This document shows, piece after piece, positions 7,907-38,025 of a stretch of 64,000 nucleotides of DNA. The DNA comes from Bacillota bacterium. Its GTDB lineage: Bacteria > Bacillota > SHA-98 > UBA4971. Position numbers and translations under genes: made by a program. The stretch covers positions 8,735 to 72,734 of the forward strand of contig JASEJE010000005.1 of the NCBI GenBank assembly GCA_030024085.1, given 5' to 3'. Numbering within the stretch: position 1 is the stretch's first letter; every line of letters begins with the position of its first letter. Below the pieces are notes generated by a model. It was not told where the DNA came from. It saw only the letters and a program-made list of their open reading frames with translations, and made no database searches.

Positions 7907-9028
7907 TCACAGCGCCCCGGAGGTTTTCCGCCGCCTCAGTAGATACAAGAAGAACGGCCCGCCCGCAAGGGCCGTGATCACACCCACAGGGATCTCCCCC
8001 GGCGCGACGACCACGCGCGCAAGGGTGTCCGCGGCCACCAGGAAACCCGCCCCTGCGAACACGCACGCCGGCATGAGGACCTTGTGGTCCGGGCCCAGGA
8101 TGAGCCTCATCGTGTGAGGAACCACGAGGCCGACGAAGCCGATGATGCCGCCGACCGAGACGGCCGCGGCAGTGACGAGGGACGCCGCGAGTATAGCGAC
8201 GCGCTTGAACTCCTCGGGATCGAGCCCGAGGTAGCGTGCCTCCTCGTCGCCCAGGCTGATGAGGTTGAAGTCGCGCGCCAGCACCACGAGGGCTGCGATC
8301 CCTGCCGCCGTGTACGGGAACGCCATCTTCACGTGGGCGTACCCCTTGCCGGACAGGCTCCCCATGAGCCACATCATGGCCTCACGAAGCGTATCGCCGG
8401 ACACGACAAGGAGAAACGATATCACCGCCCACAGGAACGACCCCACCACCACGCCCGCAAGCAGGAACGTGTCGGTGGGGAGCCTGCCCGACACCCGTGC
8501 GATGGAATACACGACCACCATCGTGGCGACGGCGGTGATGAAGGCGAGGATCGGGACTGAGCCGACGCCCAGGACCGAGAGGGGCACGCCCGCCACCATC
8601 GCAATCGTCGCGCCGAGTCCCGCTCCGGCGGACACGCCGGCCACGTACGGGTCTGCGAGCGGGTTTCGAAGCAGGCCCTGGAGGGCCGCCCCGGCAACGG
8701 ACAGCGACGCCCCCACCATCGCCGAAAGCAGGATGCGCGGGAGCCGCACCTGAAGCAGGATTACCTCGTGGGACGCCGGCCACCAGGTAGGCTCGGCGCC
8801 CCTGCTCACAAAGGGTAGCCGTCGGAGGAGGATTCCCGCGACCTCGGCAGGCGGGATATGCACAGAGCCTATTCCGGCCGCAACCGCCATCACCAGGACG
8901 ACGGCCAGCGCAAGGAGGGGCAGATGGGCGGCATGCCAGACCGGGCGCACCCCCCCGGGCGCCCGGACACCGGAGACCCTCGCCGCGCGGGCGGCCCCCC
9001 GAACCTGGCCGGCCGATGCCGGGCCCAT
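7907..9028 (-). CDS. FecCD-family ABC permease (BtuC-like)
   Basis: Polytopic membrane protein with FecCD-family C-terminal region (...GFVGLVVPHTMRLILGPDHKVL...). The ORF-track start at 9172 is probably an over-extension. Confidence 0.8.
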   Translation of the reverse strand: MGPASAGQVRGAARAARVSGVRAPGGVRPVWHAAHLPLLALAVVLVMAVAAGIGSVHIPPAEVAGILLRRLPFVSRGAEPTWWPASHEVILLQVRLPRILLSAMVGASLSVAGAALQGLLRNPLADPYVAGVSAGAGLGATIAMVAGVPLSVLGVGSVPILAFITAVATMVVVYSIARVSGRLPTDTFLLAGVVVGSFLWAVISFLLVVSGDTLREAMMWLMGSLSGKGYAHVKMAFPYTAAGIAALVVLARDFNLISLGDEEARYLGLDPEEFKRVAILAASLVTAAAVSVGGIIGFVGLVVPHTMRLILGPDHKVLMPACVFAGAGFLVAADTLARVVVAPGEIPVGVITALAGGPFFLYLLRRRKTSGAL

Positions 9029-9168: not shown

Positions 9169-10101
9169 TCACCTGAAGATCTCAGGATGGAACAGCCTGG
9201 CAAGGGCCTCGAGACCATCCACGAGCCTCGGGCCTGGCCGCACCAGGAGGTCCGGGTGTACCTCGTACACCTTCCCGTCCCTGTACGCCGATATCCGCTG
9301 CCACGCCGGGCGCGCCAGGGCCTCCGCCCTGTTGAAGTTCGTGAGGATGATTATCTCTGGATCGCGTTCTATCACGGTCTCCGGGCTGAACTGGGGCCAC
9401 TCCGAAGGCGCGTCGTGGGCGATGTTCTCGCCCCCTGCCGCCGATACCAGTTCGTCGACGAAAGTCCCCGGACCTGCCGTCATGAGCGGCTCGTTCCAGA
9501 TCTCCACGAACACCCTCGGCCTCTCCGATGTCTTGAGCCCACCGAGCTTCCTCGCGACCTGCTCCATCCTGGCCGAAAGCCTTTTCACCATCTCGGACGC
9601 CCGGTCCTCCTTGCCTGTGGCCTTCCCGATGAGGGTTATGGCCCGGAGGACCCCGTCGATGCTCTTCGGGTCCACCGCAAGCACCGTGACGCCGAGTTCG
9701 GAGAGCCTTGCGATCCCCTGGCGCTGAAGGCTTCCGACCGCCACCACGAGGTCGGGGCGCATGGCGACAATCTTCTCGTAGTCGAGCTGAATGGAGCCTA
9801 CCTTCGGTTTGGCCTTCGCTTCTTCGGGGTAATCGCAGGAATCGGTGACGCCGATGACCTTCTCGCCAAGACCCAGGGCGAACAGGATCTCGGTGTTGCT
9901 GGGGGCGATGGAAATGATGCGCTCAGGCGCGCGAGCGAGCACAACCTTTCTCCCGAGGTCGTCTATGACGCTGATCGCGGTCCCGGCTGATGCCCCGGCA
10001 CCGTGCGGGACGTACGACACGCACACGGCAAGAGCAAGCGCAGCGATGAATGCGAGAGCTGTTCGACGGCGCCGCGTTCGCGCTATCGTAAGTGATACCA
10101 T
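9169..10101 (-). CDS. Periplasmic-binding-protein (class III, BtuF/FhuD-like) substrate-binding component with signal peptide
   Basis: Signal peptide begins at MVSLTIARTRRRRTALAFIAALALA. The start ATG at 10099-10101 follows AGGAGG. The region ISIAPSNTEILFALGLGEKVIGVTDSCDYPEEAK is BtuF-like. Confidence 0.75.
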   Translation of the reverse strand: MVSLTIARTRRRRTALAFIAALALAVCVSYVPHGAGASAGTAISVIDDLGRKVVLARAPERIISIAPSNTEILFALGLGEKVIGVTDSCDYPEEAKAKPKVGSIQLDYEKIVAMRPDLVVAVGSLQRQGIARLSELGVTVLAVDPKSIDGVLRAITLIGKATGKEDRASEMVKRLSARMEQVARKLGGLKTSERPRVFVEIWNEPLMTAGPGTFVDELVSAAGGENIAHDAPSEWPQFSPETVIERDPEIIILTNFNRAEALARPAWQRISAYRDGKVYEVHPDLLVRPGPRLVDGLEALARLFHPEIFR

Positions 10102-10405
10102 GATACTTGCGAGCCTCCTTCCGTTGAACCGAACCGTCTGGTTGGCGCAGGAGAGTATCCCAGGATTCGACGGAGACCAGCCCGGGTCAGGTCGGGTGGG
10201 GTCGGGTCGCGGCATCCTCCTGAAGGCCACGGATTGCCGGCCGGGCCTGTACACTTACGTGTGGCTTCGACACGTCTGGCGCTCCGCTCCATGGACGCAG
10301 CGAGAAACGCGCGCCGGTGCCGGGGCGGAATGATCGCGCCCGCGACCCACCTGCTCTCCAGGTTGCAGCCGGAACCCTGCCACACGCCGCACGTCAGAAC
10401 GGCAA

Positions 10406-10428: not shown

Positions 10429-10487
10429 TGTTGCTCGCGATAAAACAACCTGCCACTCCCCTTCACCGAAGGCGCAAGGTCACGCTG

Positions 10488-10740
10488 ACAGGCAGGTCTC
10501 CTGGCTTCCGGATCGTCGCATCCGCCCTGGGCCTTCCCCCGGCGCGCATCCCTCCGAGGTGCGGGTGACTCGCCGCACCGCCGGGCCTGGACACGCGGAC
10601 CGGAGTGACCGTGCAGGGCTGCTCCCCGGGTACAGTGGCGGGAACCGCGGGCTTGCAGGGCTTGGGATCGCCCTGCCGCCTCTTCCCTATTCTCCCCCGA
10701 TGGGGCACCTGCCAGCTTCAAATCTGGTATCCATTCTGGC
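10488..10740 (-). ncRNA. Cobalamin (B12) riboswitch
   Basis: Read on the minus strand it contains AATAGGGAAGA, GCGGTTCCCGCCACTGTA (core GCCACTG) and a near-perfect B12 box AAGCCAGGAGACCTGCC (plus-strand 10491-10507). It lies in the 5' leader of the btuF-btuC-btuD-btuR-like operon. Confidence 0.75.
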
Positions 10741-10864
10741 TCCATCCTCATTCTACCACGGGATGGCCGACGCAGCAATACCTGCCCCCCCAAGTGAGGA
10801 TGCAGAAGTGCTCCCAACTCTATCCTTCTCAAAGCGCCGCTTGGTGCGTCGTCGCCCAGTGTAA

Positions 10865-10917
10865 CACCGCAATCCCAACAGCCGTTGAAAGACTGGGAGG
10901 AACCAACGAACCCCCAC
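10865..10917 (+). repeat. Copy 1 of a ~50-nt repeated intergenic motif with palindromic core CCAACAGCCGTTG
   Basis: caccgcaatcccaacagccgttgaaagactgggaggaaccaacgaacccccac matches 28765-28816 at ~45/53 positions in the same orientation. Confidence 0.5.
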
Positions 10918-11094
10918 TTAGCCCGCGGAACGCCGGAAGGGACGGCCGGCGCTCATCTATGGGTCACCTACTTCACAGGGCCGCTCATACTATACTACTG
11001 GCCGCCTTCGACTCGGTTGCCCTGGGCAGTCCGCCTCCGAGTGGACAACTGGGCAGAACTGGGGACCGTGGCTGCCCGGAGGGAGAGTCAGCCT

Positions 11095-12321
11095 GTGCCG
11101 ATCCTGGGGAATGGCAACGAAGCGCCCGTCCCGCTTTCAGAGGCGCCCCTGGGCTCCGCGTGCCGCATCGTATGCCTGGTTGCTGCGGGGTTTTCGAGGA
11201 GGCGGCTTCTCGACGTGGGATTCGTCCCGGGAGCGTGCGTCGCCCCAGTGCGCCGCAGCCCTGCCGGCGATCCCACGGCGTATCGTGTGAAGGGCGCCCT
11301 CATCGCGGTTCGGGCGCAGGAGGCGAAGGAGATAATGGTGCACATCTTGCCGCCGGGGCTGCCCGCCGCCGGACGCGTGGTCTGGAACGATTCTCGCACC
11401 CCGGCCGTCGCCCCTGGCCCCGACTTCGACGCCGGCCTTGACCCCGGGTCCGGTACCGCATCTCTGACGGAGGTGAGTCCTGTGAGGTTCATGCACCACC
11501 CATCATTGCGCGTATCGTGCGGTGTTCGCAAGCCCCGGCCCGGCCGGTCGCAAGGTGCGCCCCCGCCTGTCTGCCGCACCGTCGCATTGGCGGGCAACCC
11601 TAACACGGGAAAGAGCACCGTCTTCAACGCCCTCACGGGGCTCGGCCAGCATACCGGCAACTGGCCGGGTAAGACCGTGGTCGTGGCGGAGGGCTTTTAT
11701 ACCCACCGTGGGACGACCTACCGTGTTGTCGATCTCCCCGGCACATACTCCCTCCTTGCCACGTCACCGGAGGAGGAAGTCGCGAGGGACTTCATATGCT
11801 TCGGCGAGGCCGACGCGACGGCCGTCGTGGCCGATGCAACATGCCTCGAGCGCAACCTCAATCTCGTCCTCCAGATCATGGAGATAAGGCCGCGAGTCGT
11901 GGTTTGCCTCAACCTCATGGACGAGGCGAGGCGCAAGGGGATCTCCGTGGACGCGAAAGGGCTTGCCTCGGAGCTCGGGGTCCCCGTCGTGCCTACCGCG
12001 GCGCGGGCGAGGCAGGGTCTCGCGGCGCTCATGGACGCTATAGCGGATGTGGCAAGCGGGCAGCTTCCCACAAGGCCGCTTGAGGTCACCTACAGCCCGG
12101 AGATCGAGGCGCTGGTGGGCGACATCGAACGGCCCCTTGCGGCGATCATGGGTGAGATCGCCCCAGGGATCTCCCTCCGCTGGCTCGCCCTCCGGCTCAT
12201 AGACGACGACCGCGGCCTTATCGAGGCGATCAACGAGAGGGTGAGCAAGAAACGAGCACAGGACACACGATCCAGGCGCGCGGCGCGTCCTGTGGCTGCG
12301 AGGAGCGGGATCCCGGCGTGA
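11095..12321 (+). CDS. feoB: FeoA domain fused in frame to the FeoB N-terminal GTPase plus GDI/helical domain (ferrous-iron transport)
   Basis: FeoA-like SH3 segment (LGSACRIVCLVAAG...VGFVPGACV...AYRVKGALIAVRAQEAKEIMV) and then the G-domain (ALAGNPNTGKSTVFNALTG, DLPGTYSL). The probable start is the GTG at 11095 after GGAGGGAGAG. The ORF-track start at 10885 reads through the repeat motif and is unlikely. Confidence 0.7.
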   Translation: MPILGNGNEAPVPLSEAPLGSACRIVCLVAAGFSRRRLLDVGFVPGACVAPVRRSPAGDPTAYRVKGALIAVRAQEAKEIMVHILPPGLPAAGRVVWNDSRTPAVAPGPDFDAGLDPGSGTASLTEVSPVRFMHHPSLRVSCGVRKPRPGRSQGAPPPVCRTVALAGNPNTGKSTVFNALTGLGQHTGNWPGKTVVVAEGFYTHRGTTYRVVDLPGTYSLLATSPEEEVARDFICFGEADATAVVADATCLERNLNLVLQIMEIRPRVVVCLNLMDEARRKGISVDAKGLASELGVPVVPTAARARQGLAALMDAIADVASGQLPTRPLEVTYSPEIEALVGDIERPLAAIMGEIAPGISLRWLALRLIDDDRGLIEAINERVSKKRAQDTRSRRAARPVAARSGIPA

Positions 12322-13718
12322 CTCGCGTGGCCAGCCGGCAGTTTCTCGATATCGTAGAGCAAGCCCGGCAGGCAAGATCACAGGTGCCGGGCGACGTCAG
12401 GGACCTCATGGTAACCAGGATATACGAGGTGGCCGGGACCATCTGCCAGAAGACGGTGCGCCGTGCGCCTCAACCAGCGCGCGATTGGGATACGCGCCTG
12501 GACGACGTCCTCACGTCGAGGCTTTTCGGGTACCCGTTCATGCTCGCCCTGCTGGGCGTGGTCTTCTGGATAACCCTGGTGGGCGCGAACGTCCCTTCAA
12601 GGCTACTGGCGGCCGCGCTCTTCTGGGGACAGGACCGGCTCCTGGACCTTTTCTCGTGGGCAAGTGCTCCCGCCTGGCTCACGGGCGTACTCGTCATGGG
12701 AGCGTATAGGGCGCTCGCATGGGTCGTGTCGGTCATGTTGCCGCCGATGGCGATATTCTTCCCGTGTTTCGCCCTGCTCGAGGACCTGGGCTACCTCCCA
12801 AGGGTGGCCTTCAACCTTGACGCCCTTTTCAAGCGCGCGGGCACCCACGGCAAGCAGGCCCTGACCATGTGCATGGGGTTCGGCTGCAACGCTGCGGGGG
12901 TGGTCTCGTGCCGCATAATCGACTCACCGCGCGAACGGCTCATTGCCATCCTCACCAACAACTTCGTGCCGTGCAACGGCCGGTTCCCGACCCTCATAGC
13001 CATGTCCGCCATGTTCTTCGGGGCGGGCCTGCGGGGCGGCACTGGCAGGGGTGGCTCCGCCGTGTCGCTCCTCGGCGCAGTGGTCCTCGGCATCGCCGTC
13101 ACGCTCGGCGTGTCGTGGCTCCTGTCGCGGACGTTGCTCCGCGGGGTTGCGTCCTCTTTCGTGCTCGAGCTCCCGTCGTACAGAAGACCCGAGGCCGTGA
13201 GGGTGATCGCGAGGTCCCTCCTCGACCGCGCCCTCTTCGTGCTTGTGAGGGCTGCGACGGTTGCGGCGCCCGCCGGGGCTGTGACGTGGGTGCTCGGGAA
13301 CGTGATGGCGGGCGGCGCAAGCCTGCTCGCCCGCGTGGCAGGCTTTTTTGATCCATTCGCACGCCTGATCGGGCTCGACGGACACATCCTCACCGCCTTC
13401 GTGCTCGGGCTACCCGCGAACGAGATAGTGATCCCCATCCTCCTGATGGGGTACTCCGGTGCCGGAGCCATGGTGGATGTCGGCGGGCTCGACGCCCTTC
13501 GAGCGGTGCTCGTGGCAAACGGGTGGACCCCGCTCACTGCGGCGTGCGTCATCCTGTTCTCCCTGCTCCACTATCCGTGCGCCACGACCCTCTGGACCAT
13601 CTGGCACGAGACCCGAAGCGCCAGGTGGACCGCGGTAGCGGCGCTCCTGCCGCTCGCCGTGGCCTGTGCAGTGTGCTTCACCGCGGCTTCCGCCGCAAGG
13701 CTCCTCGGACTGACGTGA
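12318..13718 (+). CDS. feoB: FeoB C-terminal part (linker plus polytopic gate/membrane domain)
   Basis: The N-terminus aligns to the FeoB linker (DLMVTRIYEVAGTICQKTV...DTRLDDVLTSRLFGYPFMLALLG resembles E. coli ...ARYQCIAAICDVV...DKIVLNRFLGLPIFL). It is followed by multiple TM helices. The GTG start overlaps the upstream TGA (GTGA). Confidence 0.7.
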   Translation: MTRVASRQFLDIVEQARQARSQVPGDVRDLMVTRIYEVAGTICQKTVRRAPQPARDWDTRLDDVLTSRLFGYPFMLALLGVVFWITLVGANVPSRLLAAALFWGQDRLLDLFSWASAPAWLTGVLVMGAYRALAWVVSVMLPPMAIFFPCFALLEDLGYLPRVAFNLDALFKRAGTHGKQALTMCMGFGCNAAGVVSCRIIDSPRERLIAILTNNFVPCNGRFPTLIAMSAMFFGAGLRGGTGRGGSAVSLLGAVVLGIAVTLGVSWLLSRTLLRGVASSFVLELPSYRRPEAVRVIARSLLDRALFVLVRAATVAAPAGAVTWVLGNVMAGGASLLARVAGFFDPFARLIGLDGHILTAFVLGLPANEIVIPILLMGYSGAGAMVDVGGLDALRAVLVANGWTPLTAACVILFSLLHYPCATTLWTIWHETRSARWTAVAALLPLAVACAVCFTAASAARLLGLT

Positions 13719-13750
13719 GGGCCGTCGGCCGCACGCAACCAGACACGCGT

Positions 13751-14947
13751 CTACACTCTCGCCAGGGCCTGGTCGAGGTCGGCGATGACGTCCTCCGGGT
13801 CCTCGAGGCCCACCGAGACCCGCACCAGCGCCTCGCTGAACCCGAACTCGGCGAGCCGCTCCCTCGGATACTCGCGGTGCGTCATGGACGCCGGATGCTC
13901 CACGAGGGTCTCCGCATCTCCCAGGCTCACCGCGATGGTGCACAGTCGCAGGGCGTCCATGAAGCGGACCGCGGCGTTATAGCCGCCCTTCACCTCGAAG
14001 GACACGATGCCTCCGCACCCACGCATCTGGCGCGTGACAAGCTCGCGTTGGGGGAAGTCATCGAGCCCCGGATACAGCACGCGCTCCACGTTCGGGTGGC
14101 CCGCCAGGAACCTCGCCACCGCCAGCGCGTTGCTGGCATGACGCTCCATTCGAATGCCGAGGGTCTTGAGACCCCGCAGGAAAAGCCACGCGTTGAAGGG
14201 CGCCAGCACCCCGCCGAGGTCACACAGGAAGTCGAAGCGCAGCCGGAAAACGTAGTCAGGGTCGCGCGCAACCGCCACCCCGCCCAGAGCGTCGCCGTGG
14301 CCGCCGATGTACTTGGTGCACGAATGCACCACCACGTCCGCCCCGAGAGCAAGCGGGTTCTGGAAATAGGGCGTCGCGAACGTGTTGTCCACGACCACCG
14401 TGGCTCCGCGACGATGGGCTGCCTCCGCGGCGGCGGCGATGTCCACAAGCTCAAGGCTTGGGTTGGCGGGGGTTTCAAGGTACACAACCTTCGTCGCGTC
14501 GGTCAGGCCGGCCTCGAGCGCGCCGGGGCGTGCGAGGTCGGCGAACCTAGCGCTTATGCCATATCGCGGCAGGAAGTGGGTCACCACGTGGTAAGTCGAG
14601 CCGTAGAGCGTGCGCGATGTCACGAGCTCGTCCCCCGCCTCCAGAAGCGACAGCAGTACGGACGAGATCGCTGCCATCCCAGATGAGAAGGCCACGGCCT
14701 TCTCGCCCTTCTCCAGGACGGCCATCTTCTGCTCGAACAGCCGCAGGGTCGGGTTGTTGCCGCGAGTGTACACGTACTCTGCGGACTCCCCCGAGAACAC
14801 CTTCTGGGCATGGGCAACGCTGTCGAACACGAAGGTGGACGTCTGGTAGATCGGGGGGTTCAAAGCGCCGAGGGCATGCTTACCGTCCCATCCGGCGTGG
14901 ATCGCCTGCGTATCGAACCCCAGGTTTCGGCCTGCCTCCTTGCTCAT
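13751..14947 (-). CDS. Cys/Met-metabolism PLP-dependent enzyme (cystathionine gamma-lyase / methionine gamma-lyase / O-acetylhomoserine sulfhydrylase family)
   Basis: MSKEAGRNLGFDTQAIHAG...NPPIYQTSTFVF and the PLP-lysine region HSCTKYIGGHGDALGG. The start ATG is at 14945-14947. Confidence 0.8.
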   Translation of the reverse strand: MSKEAGRNLGFDTQAIHAGWDGKHALGALNPPIYQTSTFVFDSVAHAQKVFSGESAEYVYTRGNNPTLRLFEQKMAVLEKGEKAVAFSSGMAAISSVLLSLLEAGDELVTSRTLYGSTYHVVTHFLPRYGISARFADLARPGALEAGLTDATKVVYLETPANPSLELVDIAAAAEAAHRRGATVVVDNTFATPYFQNPLALGADVVVHSCTKYIGGHGDALGGVAVARDPDYVFRLRFDFLCDLGGVLAPFNAWLFLRGLKTLGIRMERHASNALAVARFLAGHPNVERVLYPGLDDFPQRELVTRQMRGCGGIVSFEVKGGYNAAVRFMDALRLCTIAVSLGDAETLVEHPASMTHREYPRERLAEFGFSEALVRVSVGLEDPEDVIADLDQALARV

Positions 14948-15252
14948 CCCGTGTTCACCATCCCATCTATGTACGGGTTCATGAACCCGCTGGCTTTCTC
15001 CACTTCGCGGCAACGCTGCAGGGTGAAGGTCAGGCGAGGCGCCCCGCCCTAGCAAGCGCCGGCAACCCTAACACCCCCAAGAAAAGTGGCGAAAACTTAT
15101 GGCGCCATACTTAGGCAAAACCAACGGTTTCGTTCAGAGAGTCCCACGAGCTCTCCAGCAGGTTCGGGGCAGCGATCTCAAGACTCACACCCATGCACGG
15201 TGCGGAGGCTGGGTCTTCCAGACGCTGCCTCCGGCCTCGCTCGGGCGTGAAG

Positions 15253-28764: not shown

Positions 28765-28816
28765 CACCGCGAGCCCAACAGCCGTTGGAAAACGCGGAGG
28801 AGCTAACGAACCCCGA
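28765..28816 (+). repeat. Copy 2 of the repeated intergenic motif (core CCAACAGCCGTTGG)
   Basis: caccgcgagcccaacagccgttggaaaacgcggaggagctaacgaaccccgac. It is exactly 17,900 bp from copy 1, in the same orientation. Confidence 0.5.
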
Positions 28817-28871
28817 CCTGGAGCCAGAGAGGCCGGACAGGCTGGTACGCCCCTTTGAGCGAAACCCACAT

Positions 28872-33689: not shown

Positions 33690-34104
33690 TCGCGCGTCCC
33701 CGCACGTTTCGCGCGCCTCGACCCGAGGCGGCGGTGTCGCGATCCAAGGGGACCAAAAACCCGTCACGGGCGAAGGCGGGGCGCGCACCCACATCCGGGA
33801 CGGGCGGTCGCAACGTGCCTCGCTGGAAGACCACTCCAATAGAACGGTGGAGCGTGGGCGAAAGTTCCAGCCCGCGCGAACCTGCCCCCAGCGTCAGCGC
33901 CTATGCAGATCACCACGAATTCGCGCTGCTTTTCAGCGCGCAGGTCCTCGCCAGGGTTGCCGGTGTTGCCTTCCGGGGACAGCGCGCGCGGTGAGATGCG
34001 TTCGAATTCGGCGCTTTGAGGCCAGCCAGATTCCAGGCGCCCCGCCCCGGCAATCACCGGCAACGCAGCAACTACCGGAAAACGGACCAAGGATCAGCGC
34101 ACCC

Positions 34105-37709: not shown

Positions 37710-38025
37710 CATATACATACATATGCTTGCCGTTGGTTGGCGACTAGCAGGTAATACACTCGCGTGTGCCGACCATCGCCGCACCCGCTGTGCATATGTA
37801 TGCATCGCGCTAAGTGTGAGTTCAGAAATCCATGCCGGTTTGGGAGAAGATTCCGGGTCGCCGGTGCTTGCTAGGGCGGGGCGTCGAGAATTTGGCCAGC
37901 CTTAAGCGCCAAATTCGAACGAGGCTCACCGCACGCGCCGTCCCCGGAGGGCAACACCGGCAACCCTGGAAAAGTGGCGGTGATTTCTGAACCCACACTT
38001 AGAGAACAAGAGGAGGGAAGAAGCA
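37710..38025 (+). promoter_or_regulatory. Long structured 5' leader of the leuA-like operon (candidate attenuator/riboswitch-like element)
   Basis: Nested long-range inverted repeats. GTTCAGAAATC (37820-37830) is the reverse complement of GATTTCTGAAC (37982-37992), and CATACATATGC (37716-37726) of GCATATGTATG (37792-37802). There is also an internal 9-bp hairpin (37888-37916). No T-box sequence or Leu-rich leader peptide was found. Confidence 0.3.

Follow-up and report, generated by a model that had tools for sequence, protein, structure and literature searches.

The locus at positions 11095-13718 of the window (the whole stretch of 64,000 nucleotides analyzed here, positions 8,735 to 72,734 of contig JASEJE010000005.1 of the Bacillota bacterium assembly GCA_030024085.1) raises the question of whether its feoB gene, for the Fe2+ transporter FeoB, has been broken or is naturally encoded in two pieces. 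The domains of FeoB are found there in two overlapping open reading frames (ORFs): ORF1, in which FeoA is joined to the FeoB G domain, and ORF2, which carries the membrane domain. A first-pass annotation had left two alternatives, a fresh inactivating frameshift and a naturally split FeoB. Based on our comparisons, we give a probability of about 0.9 to the gene pair being a natural, conserved, translationally coupled two-subunit FeoB, and neither a pseudogene nor an assembly artefact. Sequence comparison showed that many species have conserved the two-gene arrangement, the position of the split and the putative coupling signals (a start that overlaps or lies close to the upstream stop, and a Shine-Dalgarno (SD) motif within the 3' tail of the gene before it).

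Two reading frames and their close relatives

The relatives used most often below are contigs L081-L086, which bear the closest ORF2 homologs and come from other samples (Logan, ENA, NCBI), and L087, an independent assembly (GCA_050261335.1). The features of the locus are as follows (aa, amino acids; nt, nucleotides):

11078-11087, + strand: SD-like GGAGGGAGAG before the ORF1 start, read off the sequence
11095-12321, + strand: ORF1, soluble subunit of 408 aa made up of FeoA, linker, FeoB G domain, helical-domain helices 1-3 and a C-terminal tail (Pfam; homologue P0121, 99% identical, 408 aa)
11128-11340, + strand: FeoA (SH3-like) domain, ORF1 aa 12-82 (Pfam PF04023, E 7.5e-16)
11341-11577, + strand: Pro/Gly/Ala-rich linker of ~79 aa (comparison with L081, L083 and L084)
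11469-11484, + strand: conserved GGAGGTGA-N5-GTG module, ancestral SD and start of a stand-alone NFeoB (DNA alignment with L087, L081 and L083)
11578-12042, + strand: FeoB G domain (GTPase; FeoB_N), aa 162-316 (PF02421, E 3.7e-58, profile positions 2-156 of 156)
12091-12261, + strand: helices 1-3 of the helical (GDP dissociation inhibitor, GDI) domain, including the conserved RWLALRLIDDD helix (Pfam, alignment and the model of the fused relative P0071)
12244-12318, + strand: C-terminal tail of ORF1, SKKRAQDTRSRRAARPVAARSGIPA, conserved in the clade and carrying the ORF2 ribosome-binding site GAGGAG (12300-12305)
12318-12321, + strand: GTGA overlap of 4 nt, ORF2 GTG (12318-12320) over ORF1 TGA (12319-12321), read off the sequence
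12318-13718, + strand: ORF2, membrane subunit of 466 aa (Pfam; homologue P0001, 100% identical, 466 aa)
12318-12527, + strand: cytoplasmic N-terminus of ORF2 with helix 4 RQFLDIVEQARQARSQ, helix 5 GDVRDLMVTRIYEVAGTICQKTV and the pre-transmembrane helix DWDTRLDDVLTS

Both ORFs and their GTGA overlap, as the first-pass annotation had described them, were confirmed from the sequence, and its in-frame fusion of FeoA to the FeoB G domain is borne out by the Pfam matches to FeoA and FeoB_N in ORF1. The ORF1 frame is open from 10885, and GTG 11095 is its likely start, being also the annotated start in L087. The translation holds the G-domain motifs G1 (GNPNTGKS), G3 (DLPG) and G4 (NLMD), and it matches NFeoB structures in the PDB (3k53 at E 8.7e-54). 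FeoB_Cyto is matched in ORF1 at profile positions 1-55 of 90 only (aa 333-389, Pfam). ORF2, which ends with the stop codon at 13716-13718 and lies in the -1 frame relative to ORF1, contains helices 4-5, the pre-transmembrane helix and then a Gate-FeoB_C-Gate transmembrane domain (Gate PF07670 in two stretches, E 1.2e-28; FeoB_C PF07664, E 4.4e-14). Its cysteines C190 (GCNAAG) and C219 (PCNGR) are invariant among the stand-alone homologs, in which the membrane piece has a mean column identity of 72% and many invariant residues; the invariant residues of the permease are kept.

The two ORFs together tile the FeoB profiles without loss or duplication. They match complementary parts of TIGR00437 (ORF1 positions 1-152, 186.9 bits; ORF2 positions 247-594, 170.7 bits), and of the 772 positions of PRK09554 ORF1 covers 5-216 and ORF2 227-518. 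Thus the G domain, the helical domain (present but divided) and the Gate-FeoB_C-Gate domain with its cysteines are all found, on two polypeptides instead of the single one that defines the FeoB family. Neither ORF alone attains the curated equivalog cut-off of TIGR00437 (315.65 bits; that of PRK09554 is 683 bits). Because each half scores below the curated cut-off, databases give them generic names, 'FeoB small GTPase domain-containing protein' and 'nucleoside recognition domain-containing protein'. A scan of 10700-13800 revealed no terminator-like or promoter-like site between the ORFs; promoter-like sites were absent from the scanned region, and its one terminator-like site, at chance level, lies inside ORF2.

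The close relatives carry the same pair. L087 is 98.78% identical to window positions 11025-15037, with 49 mismatches and no gaps over 4,013 nt, and has the same 408-aa and 466-aa ORFs. A 4-nt (A/G)TGA stop/start overlap is also found in L086 (97% identity), L083 (84%), L081 and L082 (80%), and L084 and L085 (74%); L081 and L082 are in addition syntenic with the window, with FecCD and Peripla_BP_2 genes divergent upstream and a Cys/Met-metabolism pyridoxal phosphate (PLP)-dependent enzyme downstream. The comparison for a shared two-gene arrangement that the first-pass annotation had called for thus gave a clear result, since the four nearest relatives fetched and L087 share the junction without indels. 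A pseudogene would be expected to show a private break and an intact single ORF in its close relatives; the closest relatives fetched are all split identically.

The first-pass annotation had regarded the last ~25 aa of ORF1 as unconserved. This holds against single-chain FeoB, but relatives in the clade whose membrane pieces are 74-97% identical have kept the tail, read in the ORF1 frame, as ER.S.KR..D.R.R..A.PVAARSGIPA followed by the stop. The aligned tails, each ending at the stop codon, are ERVSKKRAQDTRSRRAARPVAARSGIPA in the window, ERRSQKRTLDARLRRRAHPVAARNGIPA in L081, ERVNRQWPQDTRPRSAARSVAARSGIPA in L083 and ERMEAVRVGGSRAQGSSRRVVAGSGMPA in L084, and that of L086 is conserved as well. 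The ORF2 frame is closed by stop codons at most ~30 codons upstream of the ORF2 start in L081, L083 and L084. Substitutions at codon positions 1/2/3 number 96/67/109 in the tail, 112/63/133 in the ORF2 head and 93/97/278 in the core, so that in their annotated frames both tail and head have the fewest changes at position 2 and the most at position 3. The constraint on tail and head is weaker than that on the core. The RV(A)S motif to which the first-pass annotation drew attention on both sides of the junction is not shared by relatives, L081 having ERRSQK and TGHPER there, and is thus a chance resemblance.

Distribution of the split and position of the cut

The split form extends well beyond this clade. 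We collected the 120 best database matches for each ORF. For ORF2 about 105 of them, with identities as low as 57%, are membrane proteins of 442-471 aa that stand alone, some of them from isolates (Desulforamulus ferrireducens, D. putei, Pelotomaculum propionicicum, P. terephthalicicum and Desulfotomaculum); interspersed with these are fifteen fused proteins of ~576-718 aa. The best matches to ORF1 are mostly stand-alone NFeoB proteins of 231-342 aa (Moorella, Neomoorella, Calderihabitans, Pelotomaculum, Limnochordia), and none of the 120 carries a membrane (Gate) domain. Among 80 loci from species-representative genomes, 49 are fused and 30 split (one ambiguous, with masked N), and one has no G domain in range. 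The split loci are spread over many Bacillota lineages, including Bacilli (Paenibacillus, Aneurinibacillus, Virgibacillus), and occur in Acidobacteriota and Gemmatimonadota.

In the window, and likewise in 29-30 other loci, the two genes are adjacent and co-directional, and the start of the C piece overlaps or lies near the stop of the N piece. The junctions take several forms, and all three relative frames are represented. The window and 11 of the loci have a 4-nt (A/G/T)TGA overlap; elsewhere the genes overlap by 8, 11, 13 or 23 nt or are separated by 3-14 nt. An SD motif of at least 5 nt, searched 4-20 nt upstream of the membrane-gene start, precedes that start in 22 of the 30 split loci, as compared with 7% of control windows taken inside the same genes; for motifs of at least 6 nt the figures are 13 of 30 and 1%.

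Neighbor-joining (NJ) trees were compared for the membrane domain and the G domain. Split forms cluster with one another, the sub-clades of one tree reappear in the other, and 3-5 switches between split and fused forms are needed. The two trees are broadly congruent, which is suggestive, and no more than suggestive, of co-evolution of the two halves. Some switches may have gone from split to fused. The fused L007 nests among split forms and looks like a re-fusion. P0012 (676 aa, 68% identity), the closest fused homolog of ORF2, is nearer to split than to other fused forms and has no RWLALRL helix, following helix or tail; a split pair seems to have been secondarily re-fused here by an in-frame deletion of ~45 aa.

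An alignment of 30 split and 49 fused sequences places the split at the same site throughout, after the RW(V/L)ALRLLDGD helix and the helix next to it, and before the (I/L)RDxIVxxIYxxAExI helix, each N piece ending in its own divergent tail of 15-35 aa. By this alignment ORF1 ends after helix 3 (DRGLIEAINERV), and ORF2 supplies helices 4-5 and the pre-transmembrane helix. The AlphaFold2 model of P0071 (mean predicted local distance difference test, pLDDT, 74, and 70-89 across the helical region) has a helical domain of five helices (residues 199-215, 221-230, 233-245, 249-266 and 271-293), followed by a pre-transmembrane helix (303-313) and the first transmembrane helix, and NFeoB crystal structures can be superimposed in full on its first ~280 residues (TMt 0.78-0.85, Foldseek). 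The NFeoB structure of P. furiosus, 3k53, a construct of 271 residues, aligns with ORF1 only to residue 228, ~43 residues extending beyond. Judged from alignment and model, the break is between helix 3 and helix 4 of the five-helix GDI domain, and the classical soluble NFeoB domain is shared between two chains as 3 + 2 helices. The first-pass annotation was thus right in placing the break inside the helical domain and in taking the N-terminus of ORF2 for genuine FeoB, which the alignment of its helices 4-5 to fused relatives supports; its location in the linker does not hold.

How the locus could have come to look split without being so must be weighed against these results. In a metagenome-assembled genome (MAG; P0001 and P0121 are labelled 'MAG: Bacillota bacterium') and in a GC-rich region, where indel errors occur, one uninterrupted feoAB gene might have been broken by sequencing or assembly. 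The L087 assembly, with its 49 substitutions and no gap, the same ORF structure on contigs from other samples and the presence of the split form in isolate genomes leave this explanation a practically negligible probability. Fresh inactivation would imply a recent indel of 1-2 nt, an ORF1 tail that is out-of-frame junk and an ORF2 that is an untranslated remnant. Neither the tail nor the first residues of ORF2 have a counterpart in single-chain FeoB, either half alone falls below the curated cut-off, and strain-level breaks may exist elsewhere, Bacillus cereus ATCC 14579 being tabulated with feoB-N and feoB-C and ATCC 10987 with a single gene (PMC4896950). However, relatives as distant as 74% identity have the same junction and a conserved tail, the split falls at one site in 30 of 80 species representatives while their junction geometry has diversified, SD motifs are enriched ahead of the membrane gene, the membrane piece is highly conserved and the two halves appear to co-evolve. 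We reject fresh inactivation as very improbable, since the relatives carry the same two-gene arrangement, the finding that the first-pass annotation had itself named as deciding against a pseudogene. Of its two alternatives, the naturally split FeoB is the one strongly supported.

Other explanations accept both ORFs and concern their products. Programmed -1 ribosomal frameshifting, or another form of recoding, might join them into a full-length FeoAB, possibly beside the separate products; ORF2 does overlap ORF1 in the -1 frame, and in the window its frame is open upstream to ~12156. Nevertheless, no X XXY YYZ slippery heptamer precedes the stop (GGG ATC CCG GCG TGA), and the upstream stops in the ORF2 frame of L081, L083 and L084 argue against a joined product there. 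The relative frame is 0, +1 or +2 across the split loci, some of which have gaps and intervening stops, leaving no room for a single conserved recoding, and the SD motifs point to independent initiation. Lacking a slippery site and varying in frame among relatives, the junction makes frameshifting hardly credible, and we reject it. Inteins and trans-splicing were also discarded, a tail of ~25 aa and a head of ~6 aa being too short for an intein domain. It is quite unlikely, too, that the products are uncoupled, with the FeoA-GTPase in a new regulatory role and the membrane piece acting as a GTPase-independent permease. Physical separation would permit such roles, and the tail and head regions are fast-evolving; against this stand the strict adjacency and translational coupling in every split locus examined, the congruent trees of the two halves and the retention, at the N-terminus of the membrane piece, of conserved helices 4-5 from the G-protein-associated helical domain.

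We thus favor a functional split Feo system, in which two translationally coupled genes would each give one of the two chains of FeoB. ORF2 would be translated by coupling or re-initiation at the GTGA, termination-reinitiation probably contributing. Completion of the helical bundle would dock the G domain onto the permease, and, as with the single-chain form, binding and hydrolysis of GTP would govern Fe2+ uptake. In this lineage FeoA would in addition be tethered to the G domain by the ~79 aa linker, as in natural FeoAB fusions. A bolder proposal, which we consider doubtful, is that split FeoB is a functionally distinct, widespread form whose GTPase module (here with FeoA) is a dissociable subunit, docking through the 3 + 2 bundle in an association that could itself be under control, for instance through nucleotide state or iron. 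If true, it would differ from canonical FeoB, with its covalent tether, in being a true heteromeric 'G protein plus effector' system.

Several points weigh against the two-subunit reading or narrow its basis. The function of split FeoB is predicted from conservation, and the non-covalent assembly of the chains that would complete the five-helix bundle (3 + 2) is likewise a prediction. A phmmer search of the PDB with ORF2 had no match, and hence no full-length FeoB structure, and all 50 Foldseek matches listed for the P0071 model are NFeoB, none full-length; as these searches returned no full-length FeoB, the split site is not placed on an experimental full-length structure. Between the window and L087, synonymous and non-synonymous substitutions number 5/6 in ORF1 and 8/9 in ORF2, too few to establish purifying selection by themselves, and the neighboring gene shows an equal pattern (8/9). 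The SD motif of ORF2 (GAGGAG) lies 12 nt from the start, a long spacing, so that initiation may depend on termination-reinitiation. Finally, the trees are NJ trees without support values.

The FeoA fusion and the surroundings of the locus

FeoA and the G domain lie in one ORF with no intervening stop in the window and in L087. FeoA has a gene of its own in L081, L083 and L084, as it does in each of the other 30 split loci. The GGAGGTGA-N5-(G/A)TG module is kept in the window, L087, L081 and L083. In L081 the feoA stop is the TGA within GGAGGTGA, and the same motif serves as the SD of NFeoB, which starts 5 nt further on. The feoA 3' end of the window and L087 is longer and non-homologous, and it reads through the motif in the NFeoB frame (ACG GAG GTG AGT), which yields the 408-aa FeoA-linker-NFeoB ORF. 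The feoA stop inside GGAGGTGA would thus have been lost from the frame in this lineage, fusing feoA to the NFeoB gene, and the linker appears to derive from the extended feoA 3' end and the former feoA-NfeoB intergenic or leader region. The ancestral NFeoB start, GTG 11482-11484, is now internal to ORF1 and in frame, the next ATG being at 11491-11493; the N-terminus of NFeoB is MGSMRHLSLHV in L083 and the corresponding residues of the window are VRFMHHPSLRV. Because the ancestral internal start is intact, the retained SD and GTG (11469-11484) may also yield an untethered NFeoB of 279 aa.

On these alignments the fusion is young, because neither the relatives at 74-84% identity nor the 30 other split loci have it. 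Similar proteins recur elsewhere: 23 of the 120 best ORF1 matches are FeoA-NFeoB without a membrane domain, at 41-50% identity. In L089, 21 nt separate a FeoA-NFeoB of 378 aa from the membrane piece downstream of it, which has 485 aa and is 49% identical to ORF2 over its full length. L088 (JGI contig Ga0499530_000010, 1-4281) carries the FeoA-NFeoB P0128 (374 aa, 50% identity, 91 member sequences) in the same context as the window, with ABC_tran, FecCD and Peripla_BP_2 genes on the opposite strand; 17 nt after P0128 another gene begins, with 46 initial aa that resemble helices 4-5 from a membrane piece, and there the contig ends.

The surroundings of the feo genes include two elements on the opposite strand:

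10474-10727, - strand: cobalamin riboswitch RF00174 (62.1 bits against a gathering threshold of 31.5, full model)
13751-15055, - strand: Cys/Met-metabolism PLP-dependent enzyme, convergent with ORF2 and 32 nt downstream of it

The riboswitch lies in the long intergenic region upstream of a divergent Peripla_BP_2-type binding-protein gene (9169-10254, - strand). Its presence indicates that the Peripla_BP_2 operon probably encodes a B12 (BtuF-like) ATP-binding cassette importer rather than a system for iron siderophores. The feo promoter is confined to 10728-11094; near it no match to the Fur-box TGATAATNATTATCA was found with up to 3 mismatches. The PLP enzyme is methionine gamma-lyase/O-acetylhomoserine sulfhydrylase-like, judging by the Pfam families of its L081 ortholog, and is kept as a neighbor in L081 and L087.

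Two repeats were also noticed. One, of ~170 bp with terminal inverted repeats GTGTGAGTTCAGAAATC ... GATTTCTGAACCCACAC, has at least two copies in the window with 83% identity (~37813-37990 and, in reverse, 33951-34064), a fragment at 15040-15068 and a copy at 46-162 of L087. The fragment lies exactly where collinearity with L087 ends (15037), and the L087 copy is upstream of feoA. The element looks like a miniature inverted-repeat transposable element and seems to mark rearrangement points between the window genome and L087. The other is a 53-nt repeat, found at 10865-10917, just upstream of the feo operon, and ~18 kb away at 28765-28817 (83% identity).

Comparison with known Feo systems

Whatever interest these results have attaches to the split class as a whole more than to the locus of the window. 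In annotation, such pairs should be recorded as one two-subunit FeoB, and not as pseudogenes or as a 'nucleoside recognition domain-containing protein', and FeoA-NFeoB proteins that have no transmembrane region should not be dismissed as sequencing errors. A natural FeoB in separate chains, cut in the helical domain, would suit tests of the contacts between G domain and permease and of nucleotide-dependent docking, and the young FeoA fusion may serve as a natural tethering experiment for the function of FeoA.

In the full-text literature that could be searched, split FeoB is not described as a natural architecture; the subscription-only reviews of Hantke (2003), Cartron (2006) and Lau (2016) fall outside that search. 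A survey of Feo evolution (PMC8749426) does not mention split FeoB. For B. cereus ATCC 14579, BC0708 (feoB-N) and BC0707 (feoB-C) are tabulated without comment (PMC4896950); given the single gene of the sister strain, this may be a strain-level break. The 'split' of a paper on H. pylori is the splitting of the feoA/feoB operon, a different matter. The Feo literature searched has either overlooked the split form or ascribed truncated sequences to errors (PMC8980893).

Canonical single-chain FeoB (E. coli; PRK09554/TIGR00437; NFeoB structures 3k53, 3a1s and 3hyt) has the same domains in the same order, with feoA directly upstream. In the window, by contrast, the polypeptide is cut between helices 3 and 4 of the helical domain, with ~25 additional aa as a tail on the N piece and a head of ~6-10 aa on the C piece. 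The crystallized NFeoB constructs all contain helices 4-5, whereas here these sit on the membrane chain.

In the natural FeoAB fusions of Bacteroides fragilis and Porphyromonas gingivalis (PMC8980893), FeoA is likewise tethered N-terminally to the G domain. The transmembrane region is on the same chain in ~92% of FeoAB fusions (Sestok et al. 2022, PMC8980893); in the window it is on a separate chain, and the four domains are not united in one polypeptide. The same study listed 44 + 31 = 75 InterPro sequences with FeoA and the G domain, or FeoA and NFeoB, and no transmembrane region, and suggested that they might be sequencing errors.

There is a likeness, too, to the annotated two-gene FeoB of Pelotomaculum, Desulforamulus, Moorella, Paenibacillus, Aneurinibacillus, Virgibacillus, Acidobacteriota and Gemmatimonadota, which has the same split position, gene order and adjacency, and differs in having FeoA as a separate gene where the window has it fused. 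With a FeoA fusion that also recurs elsewhere, the locus of the window is one ordinary member of this annotated and under-described class.

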